This document shows, piece after piece, positions 11,768 to 63,756 of a stretch of DNA of 64,000 bases. Location: positions 12,011 to 76,010 of the forward strand of contig CAZWMJ010000003.1 of assembly GCA_964635045.1 (NCBI GenBank). Reading direction: 5' to 3'. The notes below the pieces were generated by a model. It was not told the origin of the DNA. It saw only the letters and a program-made list of their open reading frames with translations, and searched no databases. The position numbers and the translations under genes are program-made. Every line of letters starts with the position of its first letter. Positions within the stretch are counted from its first letter, which is position 1. This stretch comes from an uncultured Gammaproteobacteria bacterium (GTDB taxonomy: Bacteria > Patescibacteriota > Microgenomatia > Levybacterales > UBA12049).

Positions 11768-11805
11768 ATTTTATTTTTACTCGCGGGTCCTGCCAATAAT
11801 ATCGC

Positions 11806-11907
11806 TCAGGGTCCTGTCGCGGGTTCCTTTCCCGCCAGTGCTCGTTCTAGTGAAGCAAGCTTCAACGAACTGCGCGCTGTCGGGAGCCCTTCCACCCGCG
11901 CCACCCC
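11806..11907 (+). repeat. RPE-like ~100-bp repeat element, copy A
   Basis: Core gggtcctgtc...cagtgctcgttctagtgaagcaagcttcaacgaactgcgcgctgtcgggagccc shared with the 26342, 28307 and 63659 copies. Flanked by direct repeats tttttactcgcg (11775-11786 and 11913-11924). Confidence 0.7.
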
Positions 11908-11980
11908 TCGCTTTTTTACTCGCGTCACCCGCCCTGCTTACCTAACTTCTGTGACAAGTGTAACACTTATTGTCAATTTT

Positions 11981-12030
11981 GTCAAAATTAGGCAAAAAGT
12001 TGACAAATTGTATGATTAGATATATAGTAA
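11981..12030 (+). promoter_or_regulatory. Candidate promoter/operator for lysW
   Basis: TTGACA(11999-12004)-N17-TATAGT sigma70-like pair. Motif gtcaaaattaggcaaaaagttgacaaatt is shared with 27808-27835 upstream of the wecB-like gene. Confidence 0.35.
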
Positions 12031-12038
12031 CCTGCATT

Positions 12039-12239
12039 ATGATAAATGGCAATGGTAATAAATCTTTAACTGGCGCCTGCGCTGTTTGCGACGCGCAGAT
12101 TTCCCACGCCGATTCGCTGGAACAATCGGAAATTATTCTTTGTCCCGAGTGCAAAAGCAGATTAGTGGTGGAAAGCATTAAAGGAAGTCAGTTTGTCTTA
12201 TCACAGGCTCCAGAGGTTGAGGAAGATTGGGGAGAATAG
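12039..12239 (+). CDS. lysW: Amino-group carrier protein LysW (alpha-aminoadipate/glutamate carrier)
   Basis: Four-Cys zinc ribbon CAVC...CPEC and the diagnostic C-terminal EDWGE tail. The ORF track gives 11970..12239. The internal Met at 12039 gives a 66-aa product of typical LysW size. Confidence 0.7.
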   Translation: MINGNGNKSLTGACAVCDAQISHADSLEQSEIILCPECKSRLVVESIKGSQFVLSQAPEVEEDWGE

Positions 12240-12246
12240 GATTTTC

Positions 12247-13089
12247 ATGAAACTTGCTATTCTTCACTCAACAATCAGGGCTGAGGAAAAACTCCTCATG
12301 GAAGCCTCCAAAGAACGCAAAATTGACATTGTTCTCATCGATATTCGAGATCAGATATTTAATCCTGCGACCTACAAAGTTGATTTTGACATCGCTTTGG
12401 AACGCAGTGTTTCCTCGGTTAAGGGCATGTACGCCACCCAATTTTTGGAGTCTTTGGGAGTGCCGGTGGTTAATACTTCCCGCATTGCCGCTATCTGCCA
12501 GGACAAATTTCTGACTTCTCTCTCTCTGAAAAGAGCCGGCGTTCCCACCCCCAAGTTTGCTCTGGTTTTTTCCGAACGGCAGGCGATTGAGGCGGTGGAA
12601 GAGCTGGGAGGATATCCGGTGGTAGTCAAGCCCAATTTAGGTTCGTGGGGCAGGCTGGTGGCCAAAGTGAACGATCAAGACGCGCTGGAGGCGATTATCG
12701 AACAAAAAACCACTCTGGGCGGCCCCCATCATCAGGCCATTTATGTGCAGGAGTATATTGAAAAACCGGGCCGCGATATCCGTATTCATGTGATTGGAGG
12801 GAAAGTAATAGCCGCCATTTATCGGCAAAGCGAGCATTGGATTACCAATACGGCCCGGGGAGCAGAAGCCATTGCCTGTAAAATAGACAATGAGCTCTCC
12901 GTTATTGCCGAAAAAGCGGCCGGCTCGATTGGAGTGGGTGTTTTGGGACTGGATATTCTGGAGACCAAGACCGGATATGTGGCTAATGAAGTTAATCATA
13001 CCATGGAGTTTAAAAACGTTCAGCGCGTGACCAAAATAGACATTGCCGGCACCATTCTTAATTACTGTATGTCTGTTGTCAAAAAATGA
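12247..13089 (+). CDS. lysX: RimK/LysX-type ATP-grasp ligase (LysW gamma-glutamyl ligase)
   Basis: MKLAILHS... start 8 nt after the lysW stop. ATP-grasp blocks: VVVKPNLGSWGRLV, IYVQEYIEKPGRDIRIHVIGGKV, YVANEVN. About 280 aa. Confidence 0.8.
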   Translation: MKLAILHSTIRAEEKLLMEASKERKIDIVLIDIRDQIFNPATYKVDFDIALERSVSSVKGMYATQFLESLGVPVVNTSRIAAICQDKFLTSLSLKRAGVPTPKFALVFSERQAIEAVEELGGYPVVVKPNLGSWGRLVAKVNDQDALEAIIEQKTTLGGPHHQAIYVQEYIEKPGRDIRIHVIGGKVIAAIYRQSEHWITNTARGAEAIACKIDNELSVIAEKAAGSIGVGVLGLDILETKTGYVANEVNHTMEFKNVQRVTKIDIAGTILNYCMSVVKK

Positions 13090-14135: not shown

Positions 14136-14138
14136 CTT

Positions 14139-16108: not shown

Positions 16109-16789
16109 GTGTGCAGATTTTTACTTGTCAGATCAGAAAAAAAGATAAAGCCGCAAAAATTACTTAGCCAGTTTGCCAGCATGTGTCAAAAAAGCCGGGC
16201 GCCGGACGGGGATTGGCAGGGAGACGGATGGGGAATGGCATACAAAACTCAAAACTCAAAACTCAAAACTCAAAACTGGCAAATACATAAATCACTAAAG
16301 CCGATATGGGAGGAACGAGATAAATTTGGGCAGTTTGAAGAAACCAATGTATTTGTAGCTCATGCCAGAAGCGCCGGCTTCCCGCAACACAAAGGAAATA
16401 TTGCGTTTAATCAGCCTTTTATCGATAATGACCTGTGTTTTGTTTTTAACGGTCTGATTCGTGGTGTCACCGTTCAAAGAAAACTCAAAGGAGAAATCGG
16501 GGCGCAGAAGATTTTTAGTCTTATTCTTGAGGAGTTAGGTAGCAGTAAACCCGATGAGGTTCTTAAAACAGTTGACAAGTTGATTGTTGCCAACTCCAAA
16601 AAAATTACGGGGATGAATATCGGCTTGGCCAGAAATAACAAATTTTACCTTTTGTGCGAGTATGACGGTAACGCTTCTTATTTTGCTGTCAGATATTTTC
16701 AAAACAATGATTTAACGATTGTTTGTTCGGAACCAATCGGCAAATACGAGTGGAAAACAATGCAAAAAGGCGAGATTCTGGTATTGTAA
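16109..16789 (+). CDS. YafJ-type class-II glutamine amidotransferase-like Ntn hydrolase
   Basis: N-terminal Met-Cys nucleophile (MCRFLLV). DGDWQGDGWGMAY and HARSAGFP...NQPF blocks are typical of YafJ/class-II GATase domains. Contains an in-frame (AAAACTC)n tract at 16238-16275. Confidence 0.55.
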   Translation: MCRFLLVRSEKKIKPQKLLSQFASMCQKSRAPDGDWQGDGWGMAYKTQNSKLKTQNWQIHKSLKPIWEERDKFGQFEETNVFVAHARSAGFPQHKGNIAFNQPFIDNDLCFVFNGLIRGVTVQRKLKGEIGAQKIFSLILEELGSSKPDEVLKTVDKLIVANSKKITGMNIGLARNNKFYLLCEYDGNASYFAVRYFQNNDLTIVCSEPIGKYEWKTMQKGEILVL

Positions 16790-16797: not shown

Positions 16798-18597
16798 ATG
16801 AGAATAAAAGAAGAATTACAACGGGTAATTAAGCAGATTGTAAGCGATCTGGGGGTGGAGGGGATAGAGCCGGTGATGGAGACGCCGGCTGTGCCGTCAC
16901 ATGGAGACTATTCGACAAATATTGCTATGGCAATATTCTCTAATTCAAAATTCAAAATTCAAAATTCAAAACTACAAGTCAAAACTCAAAAATATAAAAG
17001 TCCACTAGAGCTTGCCGAAGCCATTGCCGAATTGCTTAATACTAAATACCAAATACCAAATACTGACCTCATTGAGGCGGTCGCGCCCGGTTTTATCAAT
17101 TTCCATCTCTCCAAAGACTATTTGGTCGGTCGATTAAATGATCCGCTGTCTGAAAAAGAAAAGTTTGGGCAAACCGCTAGATTAAAAGATAAAAGTATCA
17201 TTGTAGAATTTACCGATCCAAATCCATTCAAAGAGTTCCATATTGGACATCTTTACAGCAATGTTGTGGGTGAGTCTTTATGCCGGCTTTTGGAAGCAAA
17301 TGGAGCGCGGGTTATGCGGGCAAACTATCAGGGAGATGTGGGGATGCACGTTGCAAAAGCCCTTTATGGGCTTTTGCAAAACTTAGAACTTAGAACTCCC
17401 CACTTCGCTAAAGCTTCGCGGGGCAAGCAGAACTCAGAACTGGATAAGAAACCACTCGATGAACGGGCAAAACTTTTGGGCGAGGCGTATGCGTTGGGAG
17501 CAAAAGCTTACGAGGGAGATGAGACGGCCAAAAAAGAGATAAACGAGCTCAACAAAAAAATTTACCAGAAAGAGCCGGAGATAATGGATCTTTATGAAAA
17601 GGGGAGGCAGTGGAGTTTGGATTATTTTGAAACTATTTACAAGCGTTTGGGAACTAAGTTTGATTTCTATTATTTTGAGAGTAAGGTGGGAGAGATTGGC
17701 TTAAAACTGGTCAAACAGTATGTCAGTGAAGGAATTTTTGAGGAAAGCGAGGGGGCGGTGGTTTTTCCGGGCAAACAATTTGGTCTTCATACCAGAGTTT
17801 TTATTAACTCCCAGGGATTTCCGACCTATGAGGCAAAAGAGCTTGGGCTTGCTCCCACCAAATATGAGGATTTTCCCTACGATCAATCTATTATCGTCAC
17901 CGGTAATGAGATTATTGAATACTTCAAGGTGCTGATGGCGGCTCTTGCCAAGATTCGGCCCGACTTGGCTTTGAAAACCAAACATATTCCTCATGGCATG
18001 GTGCGGCTTAAGCAGGGGAAGATGAGTAGCAGAACCGGCGATGTGGTGACAGGGCAGTGGCTGTTGGATGAGACTAAAGGAAAAATAAAAGAGCGGTTTT
18101 CGGAAATTAAGGATGAGGTGGCAGAGCAGGTGGCGGTGGGAGCGGTTAAGTACGCTCTGTTAAAAAGCGGTTTGGGCAGAGACATCGTTTTTGATTTTGA
18201 AGAATCAATCAATTTAGAAGGCAACAGCGGGCCGTATTTGCAGTATACGTACGCTCGTACACGTAGTGTACTCGCAAAATCTAGAATTCAGAATTCAGAA
18301 TTCAGAATTAGCCTCGCAAGGTCTCACCTTGCGAGGCTAGAAGTTGAGGAATTAGTTCTTCTTCGTCTGCTTCATAGATTTCCGGAAGTAGTGGGGGAGG
18401 CGGCGGAGAAATTTACTCCCAATTTTTTGTGCAATTATCTTTTTAATTTAGCCCAAGCCTTTAATCTCTTTTACCAAAAACACCAAATTATCGGCAGTCA
18501 ACAAGAGGCTTTTCGTTTATCCCTCACTCGTGCTATCGGCCAAACTCTCAAAGAAGGATTAGATCTTTTGGGGATTGTCGCCCCCCAGAGAATGTGA
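16798..18597 (+). CDS. argS: Arginyl-tRNA synthetase
   Basis: Class-I HIGH motif FHIGHLYSNVVGESL; KMSSRTGD (KMSK-type) motif; DALR anticodon-binding C-terminus. Start moved to the ATG at 16798 just after the upstream stop. Carries several in-frame heptamer tracts and a 13-bp palindrome. Confidence 0.9.
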   Translation: MRIKEELQRVIKQIVSDLGVEGIEPVMETPAVPSHGDYSTNIAMAIFSNSKFKIQNSKLQVKTQKYKSPLELAEAIAELLNTKYQIPNTDLIEAVAPGFINFHLSKDYLVGRLNDPLSEKEKFGQTARLKDKSIIVEFTDPNPFKEFHIGHLYSNVVGESLCRLLEANGARVMRANYQGDVGMHVAKALYGLLQNLELRTPHFAKASRGKQNSELDKKPLDERAKLLGEAYALGAKAYEGDETAKKEINELNKKIYQKEPEIMDLYEKGRQWSLDYFETIYKRLGTKFDFYYFESKVGEIGLKLVKQYVSEGIFEESEGAVVFPGKQFGLHTRVFINSQGFPTYEAKELGLAPTKYEDFPYDQSIIVTGNEIIEYFKVLMAALAKIRPDLALKTKHIPHGMVRLKQGKMSSRTGDVVTGQWLLDETKGKIKERFSEIKDEVAEQVAVGAVKYALLKSGLGRDIVFDFEESINLEGNSGPYLQYTYARTRSVLAKSRIQNSEFRISLARSHLARLEVEELVLLRLLHRFPEVVGEAAEKFTPNFLCNYLFNLAQAFNLFYQKHQIIGSQQEAFRLSLTRAIGQTLKEGLDLLGIVAPQRM

Positions 18598-18620: not shown

Positions 18621-19895
18621 ATGAATTTTCATAGGACTGTCTTGCCAAATGGTCTTCGTTTAATTCTTATTCCGATGGAGTCGGTGAAAAGCGTCACCGC
18701 GCTGGTGATGGTGGGGGCGGGCAGCCGCTATGAAACCAGAGACAACAACGGAGTCTCTCATTTTCTGGAACACATGGCCTTCAAAGGCACCAAAAAAAGG
18801 CCCTCCGCAATTTTAATTTCCAGTCTGATTGACGGCATCGGCGGAGAATTTAACGCTTTTACTTCCAAAGAAACCACCGGTTACTATATCAAATCATCAT
18901 CAAACCATATCAATTTACTGCTGGATGTGCTTTCCGACATGCTGAGAAATTCGCTTTTTGACGCCAAAGAGATTGACAAAGAGCGGGGAGTAATCCTCGA
19001 AGAAATAAATCTTTACGAGGATACGCCGGTCCGCAAAATCGGCGATGTCTATGAACAGCTTCTGTACGGGGACACGCCGATGGGGTGGGATGTGGCAGGC
19101 CAAAAAGAAATTATCAAAAAAATAGACCGTCAAAATTTCATTTCTTACATGGAAAGTTTGTACAGCCCGCACAATATGACAGTGGTGGTGGCCGGAGGGT
19201 TTAAATCGTCGGCAGTAACAGAACTGGTCCAAAAATATTTTGGGCAGATGGCGCGTTTCAAAACTAAGCCGGCTGAAAAGGTTATTGAAAAGCAAATAAA
19301 ACCCAGCCTTTTCATCAAACAAAAAAATACCGAACAGGCGCATCTGGCTTTGGGCGTTCGCACTTTTCCGGTACACGACAGCCGCCGCTACATACTGTCT
19401 GTTTTGGCCACCATTTTGGGTGGGGGAATGAGCAGTAGGCTCTTTCATGAAGTGCGGGAAAAACGCGGCCTTGCCTATTATGTCCGCTCCAGCAATGAAC
19501 ATTATGATGATTGCGGAAGTTTGGTTTCCACCTCCGGCGTTGATCCAAAGCGCATCGAAGAAGCGATAACCGTGATACTTGATCAGTATCACAGAATTTC
19601 CAATTTCCAATTTCCAATTTCCAATGAGGAGTTAGCAAAGGCCAAAGAATACATGAAAGGGCATCTTATTTTGGAGTTGGAAGACAGCCGGGCGGTGGCC
19701 GGTTTTTACGGCTCGCAGGAGATATTGGAGAGGAAAATAGAGACGCCGGATGAGGCGATTGCCAAAATTAAAGCGGTGACTGTGGAAGAGCTGGAAGCAG
19801 TGGCCAAAGAGATTTTTAGGCCGGAAAGATTAAACCTGGCCGTGATCGGCCAATTTGACTCTGGACAAAGATTTGAAAAACTGCTACAAATGTAA
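18621..19895 (+). CDS. M16-family (insulinase-like) zinc peptidase
   Basis: Inverted zinc motif HFLEHMAFKGT (HxxEH). 424 aa. Contains the (TTCCAAT)n tract at 19596-19626. Confidence 0.8.
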   Translation: MNFHRTVLPNGLRLILIPMESVKSVTALVMVGAGSRYETRDNNGVSHFLEHMAFKGTKKRPSAILISSLIDGIGGEFNAFTSKETTGYYIKSSSNHINLLLDVLSDMLRNSLFDAKEIDKERGVILEEINLYEDTPVRKIGDVYEQLLYGDTPMGWDVAGQKEIIKKIDRQNFISYMESLYSPHNMTVVVAGGFKSSAVTELVQKYFGQMARFKTKPAEKVIEKQIKPSLFIKQKNTEQAHLALGVRTFPVHDSRRYILSVLATILGGGMSSRLFHEVREKRGLAYYVRSSNEHYDDCGSLVSTSGVDPKRIEEAITVILDQYHRISNFQFPISNEELAKAKEYMKGHLILELEDSRAVAGFYGSQEILERKIETPDEAIAKIKAVTVEELEAVAKEIFRPERLNLAVIGQFDSGQRFEKLLQM

Positions 19896-24182: not shown

Positions 24183-24254
24183 TCGGGGATGACAGATTTG
24201 AACTGTCGACCTCTCGGTCCCGAACCGAGCGCGCTACCGCTGCGCCAATCCCCG
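24183..24254 (-). tRNA. tRNA-Pro (anticodon CGG)
   Basis: Manually folded: acceptor CGGGGAT/ATCCCCG; D-arm GCGC-AGCGGTA-GCGC; anticodon stem CTCGG/CCGAG with loop TTCGGGA; T-arm GACAG-TTCAAAT-CTGTC. Confidence 0.8.
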
Positions 24255-26325: not shown

Positions 26326-26341
26326 TAAATGGTGGGCTTAC

Positions 26342-26437
26342 GGGGTCCTGTCAGAAGTTTTTCCCGTCAGTGCTCGTTCTAGTGAAGCAAGCTTCAACGA
26401 ACTGCGCGCTGTCGGGAGCCCTAACTTCTGCCACCCC
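26342..26437 (+). repeat. RPE-like repeat element, copy B
   Basis: Near-identical to the 63659-63756 copy, with terminal inverted segments cagaagtt...aacttctg. Generates the spurious ORF 26264..26452. Confidence 0.75.
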
Positions 26438-26569
26438 CTATATTATACTTAATCAAAATGCTTATTGCAAGATAAAAGATGTGAGGATATAATCAAGATA
26501 GTATAAGGCTAACAAGCATTTTTGATAGAGAAGATAGATATTTTGATATAGATATTGATTTAATCGCGT

Positions 26570-27607: not shown

Positions 27608-27632
27608 GGGTCCTGTCAGAAGTTTTTCAGAG
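27608..27632 (+). repeat. RPE-like repeat element, 5' fragment (copy C)
   Basis: gggtcctgtcagaagtttttc matches the first 21 nt of copies B and E, then diverges. Confidence 0.5.
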
Positions 27633-49356: not shown

Positions 49357-49429
49357 TGGCAGGGATGCCAGGATTCGAACCTGGAAAAGCAGTTTTGGAG
49401 ACTGCCGTGATACCGTTTCACCACATCCC
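49357..49429 (-). tRNA. tRNA-Trp (anticodon CCA), CCA encoded
   Basis: Acceptor AGGGATG/CATCCCT; anticodon stem GCAGT/ACTGC with loop CTCCAAA; T-arm CCAGG-TTCGAAT-CCTGG; 3' GCCA. Confidence 0.85.
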
Positions 49430-49484
49430 TACGTTGCTAGTTTCTCAGGGTAAAACCTATTCATATTAAAAAGCTAGGAAATAT

Positions 49485-49660
49485 TATTTCAGTTTTTCTG
49501 TTTCTTTGTGATCGGTGCGTTTGCGGCAGTGTCGGCAATACTTTTTCAACACCAGCTTTTCCGGCGTGTTTAATTTATTGCGGCTGGTAATATAATTTCT
49601 GTTTTTACAAACAGCACAAGTGAGTCCCAAAGTAACTCTGTGTTCGCCTTTTTTCGCCAC
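49485..49660 (-). CDS. rpmG: Ribosomal protein L33
   Basis: Translation (GTG start) MAKKGEHRVTLGLTCAVCKNRNYITSRNKLNTPEKLVLKKYCRHCRKRTDHKETEKLK, with two CxxC pairs. Not in the supplied ORF track because it is under 60 aa. Confidence 0.7.
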
Positions 49661-49820
49661 TTCGTCGCTTTGCCAAGTCAGACTTGGCTTTGCTTCTCAG
49701 CGCAAGCATTTAATCGCTTGAACTAAAAAGCTACCTCCTTCTTTAGAGTTTACACCGATGTTGCTTAAAAAGCAACAGAATGTGAGCCGGCGATGGGAAT
49801 CGCCCGCCTTGCCATTTTTG

Positions 49821-49892
49821 AGCCGACAGTGGGAATCGAACCCACGCTCAATTCATTACCAATGAATCGTTTTGCCACTAAACTATGTCGGC
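49821..49892 (-). tRNA. tRNA-Thr (anticodon GGT)
   Basis: Acceptor GCCGACA/TGTCGGC; anticodon stem ATTCA/TGAAT with loop TTGGTAA; T-arm GTGGG-TTCGATT-CCCAC. Confidence 0.8.
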
Positions 49893-49937
49893 TAAGTTAA
49901 TATATTTTACTTGAAGATTTAAAAAAAACAAGTACGG

Positions 49938-50021
49938 TGCTAAGGGAGGGAATTGCACCCCCGAAGCCCTTTCGGACGTCTGGTCTACAGCCAGATGCGA
50001 TTGCTACTCCGCCACCTTAGC
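49938..50021 (-). tRNA. tRNA-Tyr (anticodon GTA) with long variable arm
   Basis: Acceptor GCTAAGG/CCTTAGC; D-arm GCGG-AGTAGCAA-TCGC; anticodon stem TCTGG/CCAGA with loop CTGTAGA; long variable stem CCGAA-AGGGC-TTCGG. T-loop TGCAATT is atypical. Confidence 0.7.
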
Positions 50022-50069
50022 CTAATTAGCCACTAGCAACTAGCCGCTAGCGTTTAGTTTGAGCCTCCT

Positions 50070-50140
50070 GACAGAATCCCCGCCTGCCAAAGCTTCCGCC
50101 GCTAACTGCGTAAGCTGTAGGCGGATGCGGGCAGGGAACT
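50070..50140. other. Structured GC-rich spacer between tRNA-Tyr and tRNA-Thr
   Basis: Nested hairpins ccccgcctgcc...ttccgcc-[loop]-ggcgga...gcgggcagg. The same CCCGCCTGC / GCGGGCAGG pair recurs at 50325-50373. Confidence 0.25.
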
Positions 50141-50177
50141 GTCGTCATATGTTTATCCCAGAAAATTCAGCCGACTC

Positions 50178-50251
50178 TGGAGCCGACTGTCAGACTTGAA
50201 CTGACGACCTGCTGTTTACAAAACAGCTGCTCTACCACTGAGCTAAGTCGG
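50178..50251 (-). tRNA. tRNA-Thr (anticodon TGT), CCA encoded
   Basis: Acceptor GCCGACT/AGTCGGC; D-arm TAGCTCAGTGGTAGAGC; anticodon stem GCTGT/ACAGC with loop TTTGTAA; T-arm GTCAG-TTCAAGT-CTGAC; 3' TCCA. Confidence 0.85.
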
Positions 50252-50680
50252 CTAGAATTTACGGGATCCCGTAAATCTAAGCCAATTTTATCAAAATTGG
50301 CAAGATTTTACTGGGGCAAAACAGCTGCCCCGCCTGCAATTGCCTTCGGCAAAAAGCCGATGGCGGGCAGGCTGGAACATTTTCATTTTACCAAACAATA
50401 TACTGGGGGACAAGTCCTTGCTCAGGAAGTAAAAAAAGAAGAATAAGTTCATCTTTGGTACAGAGTGCGACTTGGATTTTCCCCAAAACAGACAATTAGG
50501 AAGACTCATCTGCTGACCAAGGCCAACAAATATGCGTCTTGTCATCCGCCATCACTTTTAAGATGTTGGCGGACTACCTCATTAGCGCTGAATTTGTGGA
50601 GGAAAATACTCCAAACTTACTCTTATACCAAAGAACAATAATAGCATATAAGAAATAAAGGCGGATGTCAAGATTTTGGT

Positions 50681-53024: not shown

Positions 53025-53210
53025 TGCCTTACATTATATCATAGAATAATTTTTATTAAAGGTCGTCATGATGTTATTATGGACGTTATTAAGGCTAGAT
53101 TTAACACCAAAAAAAGCTGCAGCTTGATTTTGTGTTAATTTTATTGTAGTGTGCATATTGTATAGTGCAATAGCGTATTTGACATTTATTAATATAATAT
53201 AGGATGTACG

Positions 53211-53834
53211 ATGGAAACAGTAGAATGGAATAAAGCATACAAAATTTTTTATAGCGATAAAGAAGCAATTCTTGCCGACCTTAAGAGAGAAGTTAACAGA
53301 TATCCTTATCTTAAGGAAATTCTTGTTATCTTAGCCGCGGGGACGCTTATTTCTGCAGCGCTTGTTATGCCGGATATTGCAAAACTTATTAACCCCAGAA
53401 TTTGGCGGGGAGAAGGTTATCGGAAAGATAGGTTGCGACAGACGCTGAAACGATTACAAAAGAAAAAACTGATAGAGGTGGTGGAGACGAAAGATGGACA
53501 GGTAGTTAAGATTACGGAAAATGGTCTAACTCGCGCCATGAAATATAAACTTGATGAGATGAAGATTAAAGAACAAAAATCATGGGATAGGAAGTGGAGG
53601 ATTGTAATTTTTGATATACCGGATGATAAAAAGAGAGTTCGTGACGAGTTTAGGGAGCGGTTAAAACAATTGGGATTTTTTCGATTGCAGGAGAGCGTTT
53701 TTGTGCATGCCTTTCCCTGTTTTGACGAGGTAGAGTTCTTGCGGCAGATTTATGAGGTTAATATCAACGTTACTTACATTCTTGCAATAACAATAGAAGG
53801 GCAAGAGGGTCTTCAAGATTTTTTCAAACTTTAA
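53211..53834 (+). CDS. PaaX-like protein: membrane/wHTH N-terminal part plus Cas2-fold C-terminal domain
   Basis: C-terminal WRIVIFDIPDDKKRVRDEFRERLKQLGFFRLQESVFV follows the Cas2/PaaX_C pattern (vvvYDv..kRR.kv.k.L..yG.rvQ.SVF). N-terminus has a hydrophobic helix and a winged-helix-like segment. No cas1 or CRISPR array nearby. Confidence 0.45.
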   Translation: METVEWNKAYKIFYSDKEAILADLKREVNRYPYLKEILVILAAGTLISAALVMPDIAKLINPRIWRGEGYRKDRLRQTLKRLQKKKLIEVVETKDGQVVKITENGLTRAMKYKLDEMKIKEQKSWDRKWRIVIFDIPDDKKRVRDEFRERLKQLGFFRLQESVFVHAFPCFDEVEFLRQIYEVNINVTYILAITIEGQEGLQDFFKL

Positions 53835-53870
53835 AGAGTTTGATTTAAAGATTTTAATTTGTCTTAAATT

Positions 53871-53982
53871 TTAGCTTCAGGTTCAACACCAATTTCAGCT
53901 GCAGCATAAATTGGTGTTGGTTTGATATTCAAATTCCGCGTAAAATCCACACCTAAAATCCAGCGGTTGGGGAAAATGGGTT
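53871..53982 (+). repeat. 112-bp direct repeat, copy 1
   Basis: 109/112 identical to 54476-54587. Contains perfect 11-bp inverted repeat aacaccaattt-cagctgcagcat-aaattggtgtt. Confidence 0.8.
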
Positions 53983-54450: not shown

Positions 54451-54475
54451 AAGAATTTTTTAAAGTTGAGTATAT

Positions 54476-54587
54476 TTAGCTTCAGATTCAACACCAATTT
54501 CAGCTGCAGCATAAATTGGTGTTGGTTTAATATCCAAATTCCGCGTAAAATCCACACCTAAAATCCAGCGGTTGGGGAAAATGGGTT
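54476..54587 (+). repeat. 112-bp direct repeat, copy 2
   Basis: See copy 1. Confidence 0.8.
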
Positions 54588-55148: not shown

Positions 55149-57482
55149 TCAATATCCTCTCCAGTCAAGTAATTTCTGTTTGGCTTGGGCGTCATCGGTG
55201 GCGATGTTGGTTAATATATATTGCAAAGACTCGATCGCTTTTTGCTCAAGCTCAGGCTTGACGACATTTTTTGCTTTATCCAAAGACAAATCATGGTAGA
55301 AAAGCCCAAGGGCATAGTAGGCGTCGCGGTAGTCAGGTTTGAGTTTGACTGTTTTTTCAAGAGCAGATATGGCGTCCCTGCCTTTGCCGTTTTGACCATA
55401 CAGCAATCCCAGATTGTAGAAAATTTTGGCATCGGTGGGAGCCAGCAGGCTGGCTTTTTTTACCGCCTCAAGATCCTCGGCCAGATATTTCGGGTCGGTT
55501 TGAGATAGAGCATAAAACATACGGACGCGGGTTTTCCAAAAGACAACATTGTTGGGGTGTTTCAATACAATATCGTCGCTTAAAGCAATTGCCTGCTCTT
55601 TTAATAATAATGCTTGTTGTCCGGCTTGGCTGGCAATAGTGGGATCTGTTTGATTGGCAAGCGCCGCTGCCAAAATGGCGCTATTTATAGAAAACTCATC
55701 GGCAAAGGTCGGTTCATCGCCTCGTACTTGCACGGCCTCCTGCAGTTTGGGATAGGCCTCCTGATACTGCCCAGATCGATCCAGATTGTAGCCCAAAGCG
55801 AAGGCTTTATCGGCCAGCCAGAAACGAAGCAAAGTAAATTGTAAATAAAAAATAACAAATAAAAGTATGACGATTGCCAGCCATTGATAACTTTTTATCT
55901 CTTCTTTTGGAGATACAGGAGGGTTTTGGGGTTTGATTTGCTCGTTCAGGACAAAGGCGAAGGCGGGGATGAGGAAGAAATAGAGATTGATGATGACCAC
56001 CGAGAAGCCGAAGAAGTTGGAAACTAAAATGGAGAGGTAAGCGCTCAAAAGCGCAATTTCCAATTTCCAATTTCCAATTTCCAATGATTTAGATTTGAGA
56101 TTTTTAAAGATTAGCCAAAGGAATGACCCAATCATTATAAGGTAACTTCCCAAACCAAAAATTCCAGTAGTTGCCAGATAATTTAGGTATTCGTTGTGGG
56201 CTTTGTTGTAGAGAAAATCCCATTCGCTGGTTAGATTATGATTGGTCGGGCGATACTGATAATAGGCAAAGGCGAATGTTTCAACTCCCGATCCAAAAAG
56301 GGGGTTATGGCGGGCGATATCAAGCGCTCCCTGCCAGACAAATCTGCGAATATCTCCCGACTCCGTCCCGCCGGTTTCAAGGGCAGGACCCTGTGGTTTA
56401 ACTTCTAACTGCTTACTACTAACAGCTGACTTTTTGAGACCGGAAAGAGTCCATTTATTCAATTGTTCAAAAGGAGAACCGACCACAAAAGTAATACTAC
56501 CAATAAATATAAATAAAAGTATTAAGTATTTAGTATTTAGTATTTTGTATTTGTTAATCAAACGCGTTTGCCAAATGTAGATTGCAATAAAGAAGGCTAG
56601 TCCTACCCAAAGACCCAAGAAGCCTGAGCGGGAGTTGGTGAAGAGAAAAGCGAGGTAGAATAATATAACAAGTAACACGTAACAAGTAACACGTAACAAT
56701 TTTTTTCGCGTCACGTTTTTCGTGTCACTCGCCACATTGATAACAAAAGCTATGGCAATAGGTATTAAAATAGACAAATACGCTGCCAGCCAGTTGGGCT
56801 GGCCAAGGGTGGAGAAGATGCGCACGCGCGGCTGAAAAGCCTCGGTCCAGCAGGAAACATCCAAATTTCCCCGCAGCATCAAACAAGTTGGATCATAGCC
56901 AAAATGAGAAGGCAGTCCCCAGAGAGTCACGATGAGACCGGAGATAAGACTAACAAAGAGTAATCGTTTAACCATTACTATCGCTCGGGGTTCTGCCGCT
57001 CGCTCGTCCAAAGGTGCTCCTTCTAGTGAGCCACTACTCAACGAAGATGCGCCCCTTTGGACGCCTCCGCTCGCGTCACCCCTAGCTCGATGCCATCCCT
57101 CATTAACCACAAAATTACTTAAAAAAGCGTAGTATAAAAATATATAGGAGATGATGGAAAGCAAGCCTCCGTTAAATCTTGAATAAAATCCCCAAATGGA
57201 AGTATGGGTGTCCAGAGAATGAAAAGTTGCGATAATTTGAGAAATCAGGAAAAGAATAATTGGGATATCAAGCGGTGTTCTTTGAATTGAGATTCTTCTC
57301 TGAGTAATCATTTTTACCAGCCAAGCTCCCGCAATCACCAAAGTCAGAGCAAAGGTCAGCCACATCTTGTTAAATTCAAAAAGCTCATAGGTATCCCCGG
57401 CCATGGTCAAAGGGATAAGTAAAAAGATCAGATAGAAGCAGTATTCGATGGCGCGGTTTACGATTTTGGTCAAAGTTTCCAT
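55149..57482 (-). CDS. O-antigen-ligase-like polytopic membrane protein with C-terminal TPR repeats and two in-frame repeat insertions
   Basis: Wzy_C-like loop (NSRSGFLGLWVGLAFF). C-terminal TPR (YNLGLLYGQNGKGRDAISALEKTVKLKPDYRDAYYALGLFY). Contains the (TTCCAAT)n tract at 56051-56092 and a diverged inverted RPE-like copy at ~56985-57110 encoding ...GASSLSSGSLEGAPLDERAAEP... Confidence 0.55.
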   Translation of the reverse strand: METLTKIVNRAIEYCFYLIFLLIPLTMAGDTYELFEFNKMWLTFALTLVIAGAWLVKMITQRRISIQRTPLDIPIILFLISQIIATFHSLDTHTSIWGFYSRFNGGLLSIISYIFLYYAFLSNFVVNEGWHRARGDASGGVQRGASSLSSGSLEGAPLDERAAEPRAIVMVKRLLFVSLISGLIVTLWGLPSHFGYDPTCLMLRGNLDVSCWTEAFQPRVRIFSTLGQPNWLAAYLSILIPIAIAFVINVASDTKNVTRKKLLRVTCYVLLVILFYLAFLFTNSRSGFLGLWVGLAFFIAIYIWQTRLINKYKILNTKYLILLFIFIGSITFVVGSPFEQLNKWTLSGLKKSAVSSKQLEVKPQGPALETGGTESGDIRRFVWQGALDIARHNPLFGSGVETFAFAYYQYRPTNHNLTSEWDFLYNKAHNEYLNYLATTGIFGLGSYLIMIGSFLWLIFKNLKSKSLEIGNWKLEIALLSAYLSILVSNFFGFSVVIINLYFFLIPAFAFVLNEQIKPQNPPVSPKEEIKSYQWLAIVILLFVIFYLQFTLLRFWLADKAFALGYNLDRSGQYQEAYPKLQEAVQVRGDEPTFADEFSINSAILAAALANQTDPTIASQAGQQALLLKEQAIALSDDIVLKHPNNVVFWKTRVRMFYALSQTDPKYLAEDLEAVKKASLLAPTDAKIFYNLGLLYGQNGKGRDAISALEKTVKLKPDYRDAYYALGLFYHDLSLDKAKNVVKPELEQKAIESLQYILTNIATDDAQAKQKLLDWRGY
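56985..57110 (-). repeat. Diverged RPE-like repeat element (copy F) inside a CDS
   Basis: The reverse complement gcgcatcttcgttgagtagtggctcactagaaggagcac aligns to the element core gcgcagttcgttgaagcttgcttcactagaacgagcac. It is a GC-rich island in an otherwise AT-rich gene. Confidence 0.5.
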
Positions 57483-58544: not shown

Positions 58545-59435
58545 TTATTCTTTAACGCACTTCCCCCCGGCGTCGGGGTGGGAGCTATCCAATTCGCAGG
58601 TGTATTCTGTCGGACACTTTGCATCGGTAATCCTCCCGCAAGATTGACCTGATTCTATTTTTAATATGCATATGCCATCGGCACATTCCTTATCGTTTTG
58701 AATGATTTCATCTTTCGGGATTATTGCTGATTTTTGATTAGAATCTATAAATTTAAAGGTGGAGAGAATTTGATCCAATAATTTTATGTTATTTACCGGA
58801 TCTTCATAAAAGACAAACTGAATTATTTTGTCGCTTATAGAAAAAGATACTTCTTGATGGTAGGTGCCTGCAAGATATTGATTTTCCGGGATTATTCCGC
58901 TGACTTTGACAGCATTAACACCGTCAATAATTATGTTTTCGCTCTTTAGATATTTATCTTGCTGTGGATAGCCAGCTTTTTGAAATTCGTTTTTATTCCA
59001 AATTGCAACAGTTACAAGCGCAAATGGTCCTTCGTTGACCTCGTTGATATCAATATCGTTTTCTGTTAAAAAAATCTGGTCGCCAAATTTTGGTGATTGT
59101 TTTAAGTATACCGTTGGCGGATATCTAAATTGGAATTTATATTTCTCGTCCTTATACGTTTTCCAGTTGGCAGTTGGGTCTGTGGTGGGGGTTGGAGTTA
59201 GTGGAGAGGAAGGCTTGATTGAAGTTTGCGGAGAAGGTTTCGGGGTTTGTTTATTTGCTTGATTTTTAACAGCGGACATGATTACTGTGGAAAAGATGAC
59301 AACAATAATTAATATTATTAAAATCAAGTTTAACGGAAATATTTTGGGAGAGGGCGGTTGAGTGGAGAGAACCGGAGATGGAGCAACAGGAACCGGATTG
59401 ACAGGAACCTGGGGCTGCGGCAAATTTTCTTCCAT
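58545..59435 (-). CDS. Type-II membrane surface protein with Pro-rich N-terminus and Cys-rich C-terminal module (paralog 1)
   Basis: The N-terminal 58 aa and C-terminal ~75 aa are near-identical to the 59863..60789 product. The central ~160 aa are unrelated. Confidence 0.5.
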   Translation of the reverse strand: MEENLPQPQVPVNPVPVAPSPVLSTQPPSPKIFPLNLILIILIIVVIFSTVIMSAVKNQANKQTPKPSPQTSIKPSSPLTPTPTTDPTANWKTYKDEKYKFQFRYPPTVYLKQSPKFGDQIFLTENDIDINEVNEGPFALVTVAIWNKNEFQKAGYPQQDKYLKSENIIIDGVNAVKVSGIIPENQYLAGTYHQEVSFSISDKIIQFVFYEDPVNNIKLLDQILSTFKFIDSNQKSAIIPKDEIIQNDKECADGICILKIESGQSCGRITDAKCPTEYTCELDSSHPDAGGKCVKE

Positions 59436-59588
59436 AACTTTACTTTACCATATTGGGAAAATGAGAGCAAGGAAAGATATTATCGGCGATGAGATTTAGA
59501 AGATAGTTTGTAGGCGATATAAAGAAGAAGTCCTGTGATTAGAACTAGAGATACGGCGATTTGTGCAATAGCATTACTAACCCAAAAA

Positions 59589-59862: not shown

Positions 59863-60789
59863 CTAATAAATTCTAACGCATTTCCCTCCGGCGTCGGGGT
59901 GGGATCCATCTAATTCGCAGGTGTATTCTGTCGGACACTTTGCATCGGTAGTCCTCCCGCAAGATTGACCTGATTCTATTTTTAATATGCATATACCATC
60001 GGCACATTCCTTATCGTTTTGAATAACTTTATCTTTCGGGGTTATTGCTGATTTTTGATTAGAATCTATAAATTTAAAGGTGGAAAGGATTTGATCCAAT
60101 ATTGACAACAGCTCTTTATCGTAGTTAATAGGAGTTTCATACCATGTTTTTCCAAATCCGGCTGCCGTTGAGAACATTTCTAAATTAGGTTCTTTTTTAC
60201 ATATAGTCCATATTAGATTATTGGTTGAAGCTGATTCGGTGGTTTTGGGTCTTCTAAAGGTAAATTCAGCAGCTTTTATTTCGACAAAATCTTTGAATTT
60301 GTCAGACGGAATTTCGGATGGTGGACTATCCGGGAATCGGCAAACATCTGGTCCCCAAGCCATTGGGTTATAGCTCCTAAAAACGTGACCATTCTTGGAG
60401 ATTGAAATATCTTGACTAAGTTGAATGTTTCCATCTTTATAGAGATCTACTTCTTTTGACTTGTCTTCTAAAACCCAACTTTCCGGATACTTGATTGAGG
60501 ATTTGCCGTCTTTAATGATGTAAGTTTTCCAATTTGCTGTTGAATCTGGCGTGAGAGTTGGTGTGGATGTGGGGGATGGTTGGATAGATGGCGATGGGGT
60601 TTGTTTATTTGGTTGATTTTTAACAGCGGACATGATTACTGTGGAAAAGATGACAACAATAATTAATATTATTAAAATCAAGTTTAACGGAAATATTTTG
60701 GGAGAGGGCGGTTGAGTGGAGAGAACCGGAGATGGAGCAACAGGAACCGGATTGACAGGAACCTGGGGCTGCGGCAAATTTTCTTCCAT
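59863..60789 (-). CDS. Type-II membrane surface protein with Pro-rich N-terminus and Cys-rich C-terminal module (paralog 2)
   Basis: See paralog 1. The 5' ~200 nt (60590-60789 versus 59236-59435) are identical at the nucleotide level. Confidence 0.5.
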   Translation of the reverse strand: MEENLPQPQVPVNPVPVAPSPVLSTQPPSPKIFPLNLILIILIIVVIFSTVIMSAVKNQPNKQTPSPSIQPSPTSTPTLTPDSTANWKTYIIKDGKSSIKYPESWVLEDKSKEVDLYKDGNIQLSQDISISKNGHVFRSYNPMAWGPDVCRFPDSPPSEIPSDKFKDFVEIKAAEFTFRRPKTTESASTNNLIWTICKKEPNLEMFSTAAGFGKTWYETPINYDKELLSILDQILSTFKFIDSNQKSAITPKDKVIQNDKECADGICILKIESGQSCGRTTDAKCPTEYTCELDGSHPDAGGKCVRIY

Positions 60790-60884
60790 AACTTTACTTT
60801 ACCATATTGGCAAAAGACTAACAAGCTGTTAGAATACTACCAAATCCAAATAAACAAATAAACCAATCAATAAGTTAATGTTTA

Positions 60885-61262: not shown

Positions 61263-61281
61263 TGGTAACTTTACTGTTTTA

Positions 61282-62472
61282 TTGGTAGTATTGGTATGTA
61301 TTGGTAGTATTTTTATGTTAAATCGTTTTTTCTCTCTTTTTTCTCACGACATCGGGATCGATTTGGGGACTTCCAATACTCTGGTTTATGTTACCGGCCG
61401 CGGCATTGCCATTCGCGAACCCTCAGTGGTGGCTCTGCACAAAAAGACCAAAAAAATTATTGCCATTGGCACGGAAGCGAAAAAAATGGTTGGTAAAACG
61501 CCGGCCACCATCACAATAGTCAAACCGCTTCGAAGCGGAGTGATTTCCGATTTTGACGTGACGACGGCCATGATTTCCCATTACATCAAAAAAGTTCACG
61601 AGACCGGCGCCCTCATGCCGTCTTTTGCCAGACCAAAGGTGGTTATTGGTATTCCCTCATCAGTTACCGAAGTAGAAAGAAGAGCTGTGTGGGAGGCGGC
61701 GCTGGTGGCAGGGGCGCGCGAGGCCTTTCTTATCGAAGAACCGATGGCGGCGGCCATTGGCGAAGGCGTGTCTGTTTTTGCTCCGACAGGGGTGATGGTG
61801 GTTGACATAGGAGGAGGGACGACTGAAATTGCTATTATTTCTCTGGGAGGGATTGTGGTGGGAAAGTCGTTTCGGATGGCCGGAAACGAGATGGATCAGG
61901 CGATTTTGCATTATGTCAGACTCCGTCATGGATTGCTGCTGGGGGAGCCGACGGCGGAGGAGTTAAAGATAAAGATTGGCAGTGTATATAAAAGTAACTC
62001 AAAAGTCAAAACTCAAAAGTCAAAACTCAATCAGGTAGAGTTAGATGGAGCAAACTTAAAACAGGAAGAGGGGGAGGGGGGGGAGAAAGTTGTAACGGAG
62101 GTGGAAAGGGGAGAGAAAATGGCAATTGTTCGGGGACGAGACATAGAAACGGGACTACCCAAAAGCATCCGTCTCAACGAGACAGAGGTGAGAGAGGCTT
62201 TGGCGCCGGTTATTAGCAGAATCATTGAAGAAATCGCCGATGTTTTAGAAGAGGCGCCGCCCGAGCTGGTGGGCGATATTTTGGAACACGGCATTTTGTT
62301 AACAGGAGGAGGGGCAATGCTGAGCGGATTTGATCACTTAATTATGGAGAGGACTCATATGCCGGTAATTATTGCAGCGGATCCTCTCACCGCTGTGGTT
62401 CGGGGGGCGGGAAAGGTGCTGGAAGATTCTGCTTTTTTACAGCGGGTAAAAGTAACAGGCGGTTTAAAGTAA
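61282..62472 (+). CDS. mreB: MreB paralog with large in-frame insertions, first gene of mreBCD
   Basis: IGIDLGTSNTLVY, VVDIGGGTTE, LTGGGAML. Possible true start at MLNRFF (61315). About 45-aa insertion including the (AAAAGTC/AAAACTC)n tract 61983-62030. Confidence 0.8.
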   Translation: MVVLVCIGSIFMLNRFFSLFSHDIGIDLGTSNTLVYVTGRGIAIREPSVVALHKKTKKIIAIGTEAKKMVGKTPATITIVKPLRSGVISDFDVTTAMISHYIKKVHETGALMPSFARPKVVIGIPSSVTEVERRAVWEAALVAGAREAFLIEEPMAAAIGEGVSVFAPTGVMVVDIGGGTTEIAIISLGGIVVGKSFRMAGNEMDQAILHYVRLRHGLLLGEPTAEELKIKIGSVYKSNSKVKTQKSKLNQVELDGANLKQEEGEGGEKVVTEVERGEKMAIVRGRDIETGLPKSIRLNETEVREALAPVISRIIEEIADVLEEAPPELVGDILEHGILLTGGGAMLSGFDHLIMERTHMPVIIAADPLTAVVRGAGKVLEDSAFLQRVKVTGGLK

Positions 62473-62479
62473 TAGTTTT

Positions 62480-63274
62480 ATGCGGGAGCGAGAAAAATTT
62501 TTGGGCGTTTTTTTTATCTTCTTTTTTTTGTCAGTAACTCTTTTAGTCTTAGCAAAGAGCCAAAGAGCAGGCGGCGTGCAGACATTTTTGGAAAAAATAT
62601 TCCAACCATTTCAAAGCAGTGTTTTAAATTTAACTCGCGCAGTAACATCTCTCACTAAAGATTCAAATTCTGATTTGCGGGAAGAAAATCTTAAATTAAG
62701 ACAGCAATTGGTAGATCAAAAAGCGCTTATTGAAGATAATAAGGCGCTTCGGGATCAATTCCAAACTTCAATTCCTCGATCTCAAAGTGTTCTGCCGGCG
62801 AAAATAGTTGGAGCTCCCAGTCTTGTGCCGGGTATTTCCGAGCCTGAAACTTTTGTAATTGACAAGGGGGCAAATGATGGGATTACAGTTGGGCAGGCGG
62901 TTGTTTTCAAAAATTATCTGGTGGGGAAAATTACCAAAGTGACAGCTCTTTATTCTTTGGTAATACTCTCTATTAATCCGGATTTTTCTATCACCGCCAA
63001 AGACGTGGAGACGCAAGCTCCGGGTGTGGTAAAAGGAAGAGGTAGCGGCACGATGATTTTTGACAATGTAATACTATCCGATCGGCTTACCTTATCCGAT
63101 CTTGTGGTGAGCAAAGGTGAAATGGATATAAATGGGGGGGGAATTCCCAAAGATATTATAGTTGGAAAAATTACATCGATTGATAAAAAACCAAGCGCTC
63201 TTTTTCAAACAGCTTCTGTGAAAAGCTTACTTGATTTTTCCAGAATGGAGACGGTTTTCGTATATCTTCGATGA
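62480..63274 (+). CDS. mreC: Rod-shape-determining protein MreC
   Basis: N-terminal TM, coiled-coil (LREENLKLRQQLVDQKALIEDNKALRDQ), beta-rich C-terminal domain. Position after mreB. Confidence 0.7.
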   Translation: MREREKFLGVFFIFFFLSVTLLVLAKSQRAGGVQTFLEKIFQPFQSSVLNLTRAVTSLTKDSNSDLREENLKLRQQLVDQKALIEDNKALRDQFQTSIPRSQSVLPAKIVGAPSLVPGISEPETFVIDKGANDGITVGQAVVFKNYLVGKITKVTALYSLVILSINPDFSITAKDVETQAPGVVKGRGSGTMIFDNVILSDRLTLSDLVVSKGEMDINGGGIPKDIIVGKITSIDKKPSALFQTASVKSLLDFSRMETVFVYLR

Positions 63275-63657
63275 AAAATTGGTTTCTGCTGTTAATCGCA
63301 ATTTTACTGGCTATTTTTGAAGGCACAACTTTGATACTGCCGATAGTTTTTATTTATCTAAACATTTTATTTATCAAGAAAAGAAATCTTTTTATGTTCG
63401 TTATTGCTTTTGTCTGCGGGCTGATTTTGGATGTAATAATGCTTAAACCAATTGGGCAAAGCAGTCTTTTTTTTGTCGTTTCGCTTTTTGTGATTGAACT
63501 TTATGAGAGAAAATTTGAAACAAGGACTAATTGGTTTATCCTGCTGTCGTCATTCTTAGGCAGTTTTGCCTATCTGCTTTTGGCGGGAAACCACGATATA
63601 ACAAAACTGTCGTTGATAAGCAGTATCGTTGGGTTTTTATTGTTTAAACTATTATAG
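63271..63657 (+). CDS. mreD: Rod-shape-determining protein MreD
   Basis: 128-aa polytopic membrane protein overlapping the mreC stop by 4 nt. Position-based call. Confidence 0.55.
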   Translation: MKNWFLLLIAILLAIFEGTTLILPIVFIYLNILFIKKRNLFMFVIAFVCGLILDVIMLKPIGQSSLFFVVSLFVIELYERKFETRTNWFILLSSFLGSFAYLLLAGNHDITKLSLISSIVGFLLFKLL

Positions 63658-63658
63658 A

Positions 63659-63756
63659 GAGGGGTCCTGTCAGAAGTTTTTCCCGCCAGTGCTCGTTCTA
63701 GTGAAGCAAGCTTCAACGAACTGCGCGCTGTCGGGAGCCCTAACTTCTGCCACCCC
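63659..63756 (+). repeat. RPE-like repeat element, copy E
   Basis: ggggtcctgtcagaagtttttcccgccagtgctcgttctagtgaagcaagcttcaacgaactgcgcgctgtcgggagccctaacttctgccacccc. Confidence 0.75.

Follow-up and report, generated by a model that had tools for sequence, protein, structure and literature searches.

A strand-specific hairpin repeat of Levybacteria that lies between genes and, read in frame, within the loops of housekeeping proteins

Rickettsia palindromic elements (RPEs; Ogata et al. 2000, 2002) are described in PMC10969869 as insertions that are made in frame and leave the host proteins intact. REPINs (PMC3116915) are composed of conserved inverted arms around a variable spacer, show frequent compensatory changes, and have the Y1 transposases known as RAYTs as their proposed movers; for the REP head, PMC3733652 gives the conserved tetranucleotide GTAG or CGTC. 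In-frame fusions are also found among MITEs (transposable elements of the miniature inverted-repeat type), namely, Coxiella QMITE1, intragenic ERIC, large BOX and the Anabaena MITEs (PMC10969869, PMC5896051). Here we describe a palindromic repeat in a 64,000-nucleotide stretch of contig CAZWMJ010000003.1 (positions 12,011 to 76,010 of the forward strand; hereafter called the window, with position 1 as its first letter) and in related contigs. It is closest to REPINs in architecture and closest to RPEs in behavior. The element is structured, strand-specific and multi-copy, is gained and lost, and is tolerated in frame in the loops of many essential proteins. In this central respect, namely, a palindromic family that is both intergenic and translated in frame, the original prediction of an RPE-like element for this DNA was right.

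A 44-nt core, CAGTGCTCGTTCTAGTGAAGCAAGCTTCAACGAACTGCGCGCTG, occurs four times without mismatch in the window, always on the forward strand, against none expected from 100 shuffles, and a repeat search placed four copies of about 105 nt in one group. A covariance model, built from 18 copies and run over both strands, recognized exactly five full elements, every one of them on the forward strand; the reverse strand reached only 14–18 bits at the same five places, and thus the orientation of the element is well defined. Altogether, the window contains four full copies (A to D), one diverged copy and one 21-nt remnant, all on the forward strand. At the four sites where a family of about 95–100 bp had been predicted, the exact cores, the repeat grouping and the model scores (104–120 bits) agree. 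The G+C content of the window is 41%, and that of the element is about 55–64%.

Copy A (11809–11907; model match 11806–11913, 120 bits) lies in the intergenic space that separates an ACT-domain gene (-) from a RimK/LysX-type ATP-grasp gene (+); its inner helix is GCGGGT/ACCCGC, and its "GPV..." frame is open. Copy B (26343–26437; model match 26340–26443, 104 bits), between a PEGA-domain gene (-) and mreB (+), is a short variant of 95 nt, which is not a multiple of 3, with the inner helix AGAAGTT/AACTTCT. On the other side of mreB, 13 nt past its stop codon, lies the 21-nt 5' remnant GGGTCCTGTCAGAAGTTTTTC (27608–27628, +); the fragment is real, and together with copy B it flanks mreB, as had been claimed. 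Copy C (28307–28404; model match 28304–28411, 118 bits) lies in the sense direction and in frame in a gene (27870–28682, +) for a WecB/TagA/CpsF glycosyltransferase of 270 aa; it has the inner helix CGCCT/AGGCG and encodes GPVPPFLPVSARSSEASFNELRAVGSPSRRAT. An identical 270-aa protein, P0001, is already on record, in agreement with the predicted in-frame insertion, and its nearest named relatives belong to Candidatus Levybacteria, Microgenomates and Patescibacteria. Copy D (63662–63756; model match 63659–63762, 105 bits) begins 5 nt 3' of the last (third) gene of the mreB2-mreC-(mreD) operon, where a copy following mreBCD had been reported; the third gene, an unannotated open reading frame (ORF), is probably mreD. 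Copies D and B share 96% identity over 105 nt and the same inner helix, in unrelated loci. The diverged copy (56985–57088, +; 61 bits, E = 6e-15) is inside a gene (55149–57482, -) for an O-antigen-ligase-like (Wzy_C) protein with TPR repeats, of 777 aa. It had been taken as a diverged inverted copy; it is indeed diverged, and it runs in the same direction as the others, being antisense only to its host gene, from which it is read as ...GWHRARGDASGGVQRGASSLSSGSLEGAPLDERAAEPR... It belongs to another subfamily, with GCC/GTC-type termini, and shows compensatory changes in the middle stem and a broken inner hexamer helix. A possible further remnant on the minus strand (56345–56391) scored only 6.9 bits (E = 5.5) and is unsupported.

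Copies A to D, aligned with their flanks, follow a common plan: GGGTCCTGTC / variable block / TTCCCG(Y)CAGTGCTCG...GCGCGCTGTCGGGAGCCCT / second variable block / GCCACCC(C). In the alignment of the 18 distinct copies, which come from 11 loci, the 5' arm reads GGGGTCCTGTC-H6-TTTCC(N)TCCCGYCAGTGCTC and the 3' arm GCGCGCTGTCGGGAGCCCTTCC-H6'-TGCCACCCC, and the apical segment (tip) between them varies by lineage in both sequence and length; in one case, a different small repeat, encoding VYPERSRR, is nested in the apical segment. The predicted palindrome does fold, the two arms forming a rod whose bulges are conserved; for single copies, the folding energy is -41 to -46 kcal/mol (z = -4.2 to -5.8). 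Standard pairs occupy 94.8% of the alignment cells, compared with 37–51% in slid registers, and changes on both sides were found at 10 pairs in 45 cells, compared with 12.6 cells in shuffles (0 of 500 shuffles reached 45). This covariation is concentrated in H6/H6', where six of the eight inner-helix pairs show double changes with almost no G-T intermediates. The 5'-arm hexamers are GCGGGT, AGAAGT, CGCCT, AGAAGC, AATCGC, AAAAGC, CGGGT, CCGGAT, AAAAGT, AGTAGT, AGTTCT and ACCGCT, and each is matched by its exact complement on the 3' arm; the only copies with a broken helix are the two that have diverged most, in contig L014 and in the Wzy gene. The H6/H6' helix is, therefore, free in sequence and obligatory in pairing. 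It follows that cagaagtt/aacttctg, once proposed as the ends of the element, is no more than the inner helix of copies B and D, since other copies carry other complementary hexamers. One T-G pair is conserved in 16 of the 18 copies; the other strand would have a C-A mismatch there.

The constraint is on nucleotides and pairing, and not on the encoded peptide. Within the conserved arms, the conservation of codon positions is 0.958 for the third, 0.950 for the first and 0.887 for the second, and the Wzy copy, being read from the opposite strand, gives an unrelated peptide. Between the window and contig L007, the element is 87% identical, whereas mreB and wecB are 72.8% and 66.9% identical, respectively; for L003, the closest relative found, the values are 95–98% for the element and 77–86% for coding DNA. 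The contigs L001, L002 and L011 have essentially only the element in common with the window (84–93%), apart from one additional match of about 33 nt each in L001 and L011.

Fourteen of the 18 distinct copies are inside coding sequences. Taken between landmarks common to the copies, all 14 measure 98, 101, 116, 119 or 131 nt, to which one flanking base is added, and these lengths are congruent modulo 3. The 14 copies contain no stop codon and are read as a loop of about 33–44 residues rich in G, P, S, A and R. B and D, both intergenic, are shorter by 4 nt, and this brings a TAG stop into the GPV frame, so that two of the three intergenic copies break the length rule. Copies that came from protein searches are in frame by construction; however, the three that came from nucleotide search alone (in WecB, RadA and phosphoribosyl pyrophosphate [PRPP] synthetase, Prs) are all in the same open frame. 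The lengths and the lack of stop codons argue that the element is translated and not excised. In an AlphaFold2 model of WecB/TagA based on 34 orthologues, the mean predicted local distance difference test score (pLDDT) is 86.5, and it falls below 50 in the insert (residues 145–178), which is thus predicted to be disordered within an otherwise confident fold. In the RadA gene of L001, the element is read in the frame used in WecB/TagA and comes directly after the Walker A helix, with 36 residues replacing four of Streptococcus pneumoniae RadA (5lkm); in Prs (L002), again in the same frame, 46 residues replace seven of the Bacillus subtilis enzyme (1dkr). Both inserts fall between conserved blocks of the solved structures, and in the hosts examined the insertion site is a loop.

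To what proteins this extends was seen from an exhaustive search of 1.84 billion representative proteins with a profile of the encoded peptide (E ≤ 0.001), which returned 27 cluster representatives, many of them unrelated and most of them housekeeping proteins. By sequence inspection, these include one leucyl-tRNA synthetase (LeuRS) with two copies and another with three to four, as well as arginyl-tRNA synthetase (ArgRS), Tgt, RecJ, SufC, FolC, a DnaX-like protein, part of a topoisomerase, and glycosyltransferases. Among the ArgRS representatives, one has that annotation, and one bears the name Candidatus Curtissbacteria. The DNA of some of the matches holds genuine copies (68–120 bits), in LeuRS, ComEC-like and RadA genes. 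A word-index search with a doubled element peptide gave no match, although the identical host protein is in that database. When WecB orthologues are compared, the segments in the same loop prove to be nucleotide homologues of the intergenic copies (68–120 bits) and not an ancient unrelated domain, and the WecB of the closest relative keeps only a remnant of about 13 nt from the 3' end of the element; both results favor the insertion that had been predicted.

In the flanks of the 18 copies, inspection revealed no consistent target-site duplication, of TA or otherwise, and no relation between the variable hexamer and the flanking DNA. The trinucleotide TCG is frequent before the 5' end; otherwise no fixed flanking motif is evident. 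Two 12-nt direct repeats around copy A had been interpreted as a target-site duplication. They do not abut the element, however: the first (11774–11785, +) is 23 nt upstream and runs into GGGTCCTGCC (11785–11794; a GGTCCTGCC motif), and the second (11913–11924, +) is 5 nt downstream and runs into GTCACCC (11924–11930). Flanking duplications are likewise missing from the other 17 copies, and this interpretation is not supported. The solitary motifs around copy A resemble the 5' and 3' termini, in variants that are seen in L014 and the Wzy copy, and to judge from the sequence the repeats and motifs together are probably the remains (shell) of a second element. In all 18 copies, the forward strand of the element is the G-rich strand of its locus. 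In the parts of the window with minus-strand genes the GC skew remains positive, and it is this skew, and not the transcription direction, that the orientation of the intergenic copies and of the antisense Wzy copy matches. Of the two parental strands, it is the G-rich one that serves as lagging-strand template.

The element was found in at least 10 independent assemblies and is thus not an assembly artifact, a doubt that had been raised with the prediction; the groups in which it is seen are Levybacteria and Curtissbacteria. Scans with an exact 40-nt core gave at least one locus each in the genome and metagenome collections; among the matches listed, that in the genome collection is the 7-kb contig L001. 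The plasmid collection contained no match to the element. In viral contigs the 5' arm had none, and the 3' arm had nine, each an 18-mer; these are due to chance, as none of them scores with the covariance model. The contig L001 (CAZDTO010000052.1) is from a metagenome-assembled genome labeled as uncultured Gammaproteobacteria. Because its RadA is 98% identical to a RadA of Levybacteria (P0206) and it carries the Levybacteria element, it is almost certainly mis-binned.

Gain and loss are evident from related contigs; the loci that hold copies differ from genome to genome, and copies decay through internal deletions. L003 starts inside a full copy (1–57) at the post-mreB site, and the remnant at 27608–27628 in the window is, therefore, an internal-deletion derivative. 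Conversely, the WecB loop of L003 is without the element apart from some 13 nt left of the 3' end (CGTACCACCACTCGC vs. CGTGCCACCCTTCGT); this allele is a deletion derivative and not a virgin site. In the syntenic regions, L004, L005 and L007 have neither copy B nor the post-mreB copy, and the WecB copy of L007 is nearer to copies B and D of the window than to the WecB copy of the window. The same loops are reused across lineages: many WecB orthologues have members of the family or heptamer-repeat peptides (described below) in one loop; the site after Walker A in RadA may hold a member of this family or of related ones, an unrelated family, or no insert; and the loop in the N domain of ArgRS holds the element in P0123 and heptamer-repeat sequence in the ArgRS of the window. 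Such reuse would represent either insertions that recurred and passed through selection or ancient copies that conversion has renewed.

The comparison with described systems gives a mixed picture. As reported for RPEs (PMC10969869), palindromes of about 100–150 bp occur here between genes and inside unrelated housekeeping genes, where they are read in frame; the inserts are in loops, the bacterium is host-dependent with a reduced genome, and the mobilizing enzyme has been identified in neither case. However, the present hosts belong to a different phylum (the candidate phyla radiation [CPR], or Patescibacteria), and the likeness is one of behavior, with no known relationship in sequence; because the host is a member of the Levybacteria, common descent with RPEs is unlikely, and we class the element as working like an RPE and not as one of them. 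Unlike RPEs, this family has arms that are extremely conserved across a whole class together with a hypervariable paired hexamer, a single orientation relative to GC skew in all copies, reuse of the same loops in many lineages, and up to three to four copies in one LeuRS gene. With REPINs (PMC3116915), it shares two conserved inverted arms, a less conserved spacer, a long hairpin predicted for single-stranded DNA or RNA, and compensatory changes, and it likewise seems non-autonomous, makes no target duplication and is inserted into or beside existing copies. Yet REPINs are extragenic, whereas most copies here are in coding sequence, and no RAYT gene was found in the about 60 ORFs of the window or in the fetched loci, which cover parts of genomes. 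Nor is a conserved tag evident: CGTC arises within CCCGTCAG only if the variable Y is T (it is C in copies A and D), and GTAG was not seen. The arms, of about 35 nt, are not themselves obvious small palindromes. Because REPINs are extragenic and are defined by RAYTs, we have not filed the element as one of them.

Like the MITEs with in-frame fusions, the element is short and non-autonomous and sometimes has an open frame that leads to translational fusions. Those MITEs, however, have recognizable terminal inverted repeats, usually show target duplications and have only occasional in-frame cases, whereas the present element is commonly in frame in essential genes and shows no duplication. Elements of the IS200/IS605 type and their derivatives (palindrome-associated elements) depend on imperfect DNA hairpins with extrahelical bases, produce no target duplication and have an orientation tied to the lagging-strand template. 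The present element resembles them in all three respects; nevertheless, each of their two ends has its own small hairpin, and they are inserted beside a fixed tetra- or pentanucleotide, whereas here both ends pair together into one rod. The mobile GC clusters of yeast mitochondria and the palindromic repeats of algal organelles are also GC-rich sequences in AT-richer reduced genomes and are likewise found in frame in coding regions, but they belong to organelles, are much shorter at 30–50 nt, differ in sequence and presumably differ in mechanism. The boxes of integron attC sites (RYYYAAC/GTTRRRY) are not present at the base of the hairpin, where the basal arms are GGGGTCCTGTC/TGCCACCCC, and a Pfam search of the about 60 ORFs of the window revealed no cassette array or integrase. 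An intein was also considered and rejected, as an insert of 33 residues is far too short.

Based on these results, we consider that the element is probably a non-autonomous, hairpin-forming repeat specific to Microgenomates, with RPE-like behavior and a REPIN-like build, which is spreading or has recently spread in genomes and survives where it does little harm. Mobility as a single strand is inferred from the conserved arms and bulges, the helix in which only pairing is kept, the free tip, the lack of duplication and the uniform orientation. The hairpin would be the substrate of a trans-acting enzyme that recognizes folded single-stranded DNA, a candidate being a Y1/HUH transposase of the RAYT or IS200/IS605 kind, and this enzyme would act on the lagging-strand template; the covariation of the helix, the conservation of the bulges, the lack of target duplications and the single orientation would thereby be explained. 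The in-frame copies would then be the survivors of a selection filter that passes an open frame, a length that is a multiple of 3 and a permissive surface loop. Several observations weigh against this reading. Pfam shows ordinary housekeeping and cell-envelope genes in the window, and no transposase, recombinase or HUH gene was found among its about 60 ORFs or linked to the element in any locus fetched. A virgin empty site was not recovered (the contig of a close RadA relative starts past the site, and P0268, a near-identical LeuRS, holds both copies), so that the exact ends and the insertion event are undemonstrated. The strand bias rests on local GC skew and not on mapped origins, and for the sense copies it is partly confounded with gene orientation. 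The filling of the same WecB, RadA and ArgRS loops in distant lineages could mean ancient vertical inheritance. Contrary to what is expected of decaying selfish copies, the element is better conserved than the genes around it; for it to exceed mreB in conservation, turnover, gene conversion or a function at the level of the host is required. Finally, copies A, B, C, D, L001 and L002 have an identical center of about 70 nt with entirely different inner helices, which simple copying and decay do not explain. Because hexamers differ on shared centers, and the same hexamer types recur with different tips in other genomes, center and hexamer cassette seem to be reassorted, by partial gene conversion or some directed process.

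The unexplained hexamer cassettes and the high conservation keep two other readings alive. One, to which we give a minor but real chance, is that the element is the cis-acting hairpin of a Microgenomates-wide system for single-stranded DNA, of the HUH or recombinase type, which would act on the lagging-strand template in a strand-specific way and would time and again renew or re-target copies at the same permissive loops of essential genes; the arms would be its recognition site and the covarying 6-bp helix a spacer or specificity module. If so, it would represent a new class of hairpin transposon living largely inside coding DNA and an important source of the lineage-specific insertions that are characteristic of CPR proteins. 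Somewhat less likely is an element maintained by the host, each copy being selected for a strand-specific hairpin function as RNA or single-stranded DNA (mRNA stabilization or processing, a protein-binding site, or a priming or replication signal), with its presence in coding regions merely tolerated. The conservation above mreB and wecB between genomes, third codon positions as conserved as first ones, strict covariation with conserved bulges, uniform orientation on the G-rich strand, loops filled alike across lineages, and adjacency to the ends or starts of operons (D after mreB2-mreC-mreD, B before mreB) would all suit such a role. However, presence differs among close relatives, with deletions that do no apparent harm; the sites are heterogeneous, including divergent promoters, operon ends, and sense and antisense positions within coding regions; and the tip sequence is free between lineages. 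Moreover, a simple scan for terminators flagged no copy, and no terminator-like tail is present; in Rfam 15 only tRNAs of the window reach gathering scores, the best sub-threshold matches on the element having E ≥ 2; and the need for a hairpin of -45 kcal/mol within the frames of LeuRS, RadA and SufC is hard to picture.

Origin from a DDE transposon is improbable, although the conserved arm at either end of a variable interior recalls a classical MITE with long terminal inverted repeats, and fragments of an IS630-like helix-turn-helix transposase are found in a related Levybacteria contig (L012, 3779–4918), as is a weak HTH_32 match in L004. The 18 copies lack the target-site duplication that such an origin implies, a transposase that binds double-stranded DNA gives no cause for covariation of the arms to keep a 6-bp helix paired, and cut-and-paste DDE elements are not expected to show so strong a strand bias. 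Full-length elements that end in these termini were not found; solitary termini bracket no gene in the window or in 12 non-redundant related loci, which is a small sample. We give very little credence to a functional peptide module (GPV..FPPASARS..RAVGSP..ATP) spread among proteins by recombination, with the intergenic copies as by-products. WecB, RadA and Prs, all three from the nucleotide search, do use the same reading frame, and the motif is recognizable in the 27 protein cluster representatives; but synonymous positions are not relaxed, intact copies are intergenic (B and D being frameshifted, with the TAG in the GPV frame), the Wzy gene reads an unrelated peptide from the opposite strand, the insert is predicted to be disordered, and the variable codons of the two arms must be reverse complements of each other, which is a constraint of nucleic acid. 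Hardly more than negligible, and slightly below even this module, is the chance that the element is an intron-like intervening sequence cut out of the RNA, as insertions in CPR ribosomal RNA are, in which case the insert would never appear in the proteins. CPR bacteria have unusual intervening sequences in rRNA and tRNA genes (PMC13011429), which are a precedent, and the fold is very stable and conserved; no ribozyme or intron family matched, however, and an excised element would escape the constraint on frame and length that is seen in 14 of 14 intragenic copies and not in two of the three intergenic ones, with the three cases from nucleotide search all in the same open frame.

In full-text searches of the literature on CPR, Patescibacteria, Levybacteria and Microgenomates, we found no description of such an element, in line with the original prediction, which knew of no equivalent for this kind of genome, although a prior description elsewhere is possible; a 2026 survey of introns in Patescibacteria makes no mention of it. 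In-frame palindromic repeats have so far been treated as a peculiarity of Rickettsia, and an independent, apparently much more conserved family in ultra-small, episymbiotic CPR bacteria, located in aminoacyl-tRNA synthetases, RadA, SufC and enzymes of the cell envelope, suggests that the phenomenon recurs in reduced genomes. If a spreading hairpin repeat is the right reading, it helps to account for unexplained insertions and length variation in CPR proteins and may explain some contig breaks in CPR assemblies (L003 ends inside the repeat), and the arms, the covarying helix and the strand bias offer handles for finding the mobilizing enzyme in organisms that cannot be cultured alone.

The window also contains tandem heptamers (of the AATTTCC, AACTCAA and AATTCAA types) within genes, encoding in-frame peptides such as NSKFKIQNSKLQVKTQKY and LEIGNWKLEIG. 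They are located at 16942–16993 (ArgRS), 19595–19641 (M16 peptidase), 36247–36293 (ribosomal protein L10), 56055–56087 (Wzy-TPR), 61996–62041 (an MreB paralogue, which has 396 aa against the usual 340 or so) and 16232–16291 (hypothetical protein). Nostoc-type small dispersed repeats, which these heptamers first suggested, were rejected, as the protein matches are to Levybacteria; the genome is that of a Candidatus Levybacteria (Microgenomates, CPR) and not of a cyanobacterium. By their flanking residues, the heptamers of the window ArgRS occupy the loop that holds the palindromic element in P0123, and the WecB and RadA loops of other lineages contain heptamer-encoded peptides, too. The gene for ribosomal protein L1 (37761–38657, -) contains a palindromic array of 7-nt units at 38367–38451 (GGTATCACGAG... 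/ ...CTGTGATACC), read in frame as EVSQGEKVPQVPQGEIPRDTRDTRTPRDT; of the 298 residues of the protein, Pfam L1 covers only 170–288, and the N-terminal half seems to be repeat-expanded. Two LeuRS sequences from different assemblies, P0268 and P0121 (L011), are 99% identical, with a seven-residue indel, DPKSEIR (21 nt, or three heptamers), as the sole difference, which suggests a copy-number polymorphism of heptamers inside an essential gene; the LeuRS of L011 is called as two ORFs (716 and 211 aa), compared with 936 aa in a relative. Other in-frame repeat peptides are present in CPR proteins (L013, 12571–12689; P0122, P0126, P0136, P0146, P0178 and P0247), including VYPERSRR, SLRAKRSNL...IASS...PRNDK, ISDDARQS...SLSE and SERSEESK..FAIAQDDK, and the phenomenon of in-frame repeats seems to involve several element families.

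Among the other features of the window are a cluster of five tRNA genes (49360–50252, -) and another tRNA site at 24183–24254, none of the tRNAs being interrupted by the element, and a short DnaA-like gene (39269–40390; 373 aa, Bac_DnaA and Bac_DnaA_C), which is probably not at a replication origin; the GC skew does not change sign there. Two adjacent genes on the minus strand (58553–59461 and 59874–60815; 296 and 308 aa) have no Pfam match and share segments of about 230–240 nt that are 94–95% identical, and look like a recent tandem gene duplication. A direct repeat of 113 nt (53870–53982 and 54475–54587; 97% identical), each copy of which has a 36-nt palindrome centered on CAGCTGCAGC, flanks a small ORF beside a PaaX/Cas2-like gene (53211–53834), and a related palindrome is found at 53096–53143.

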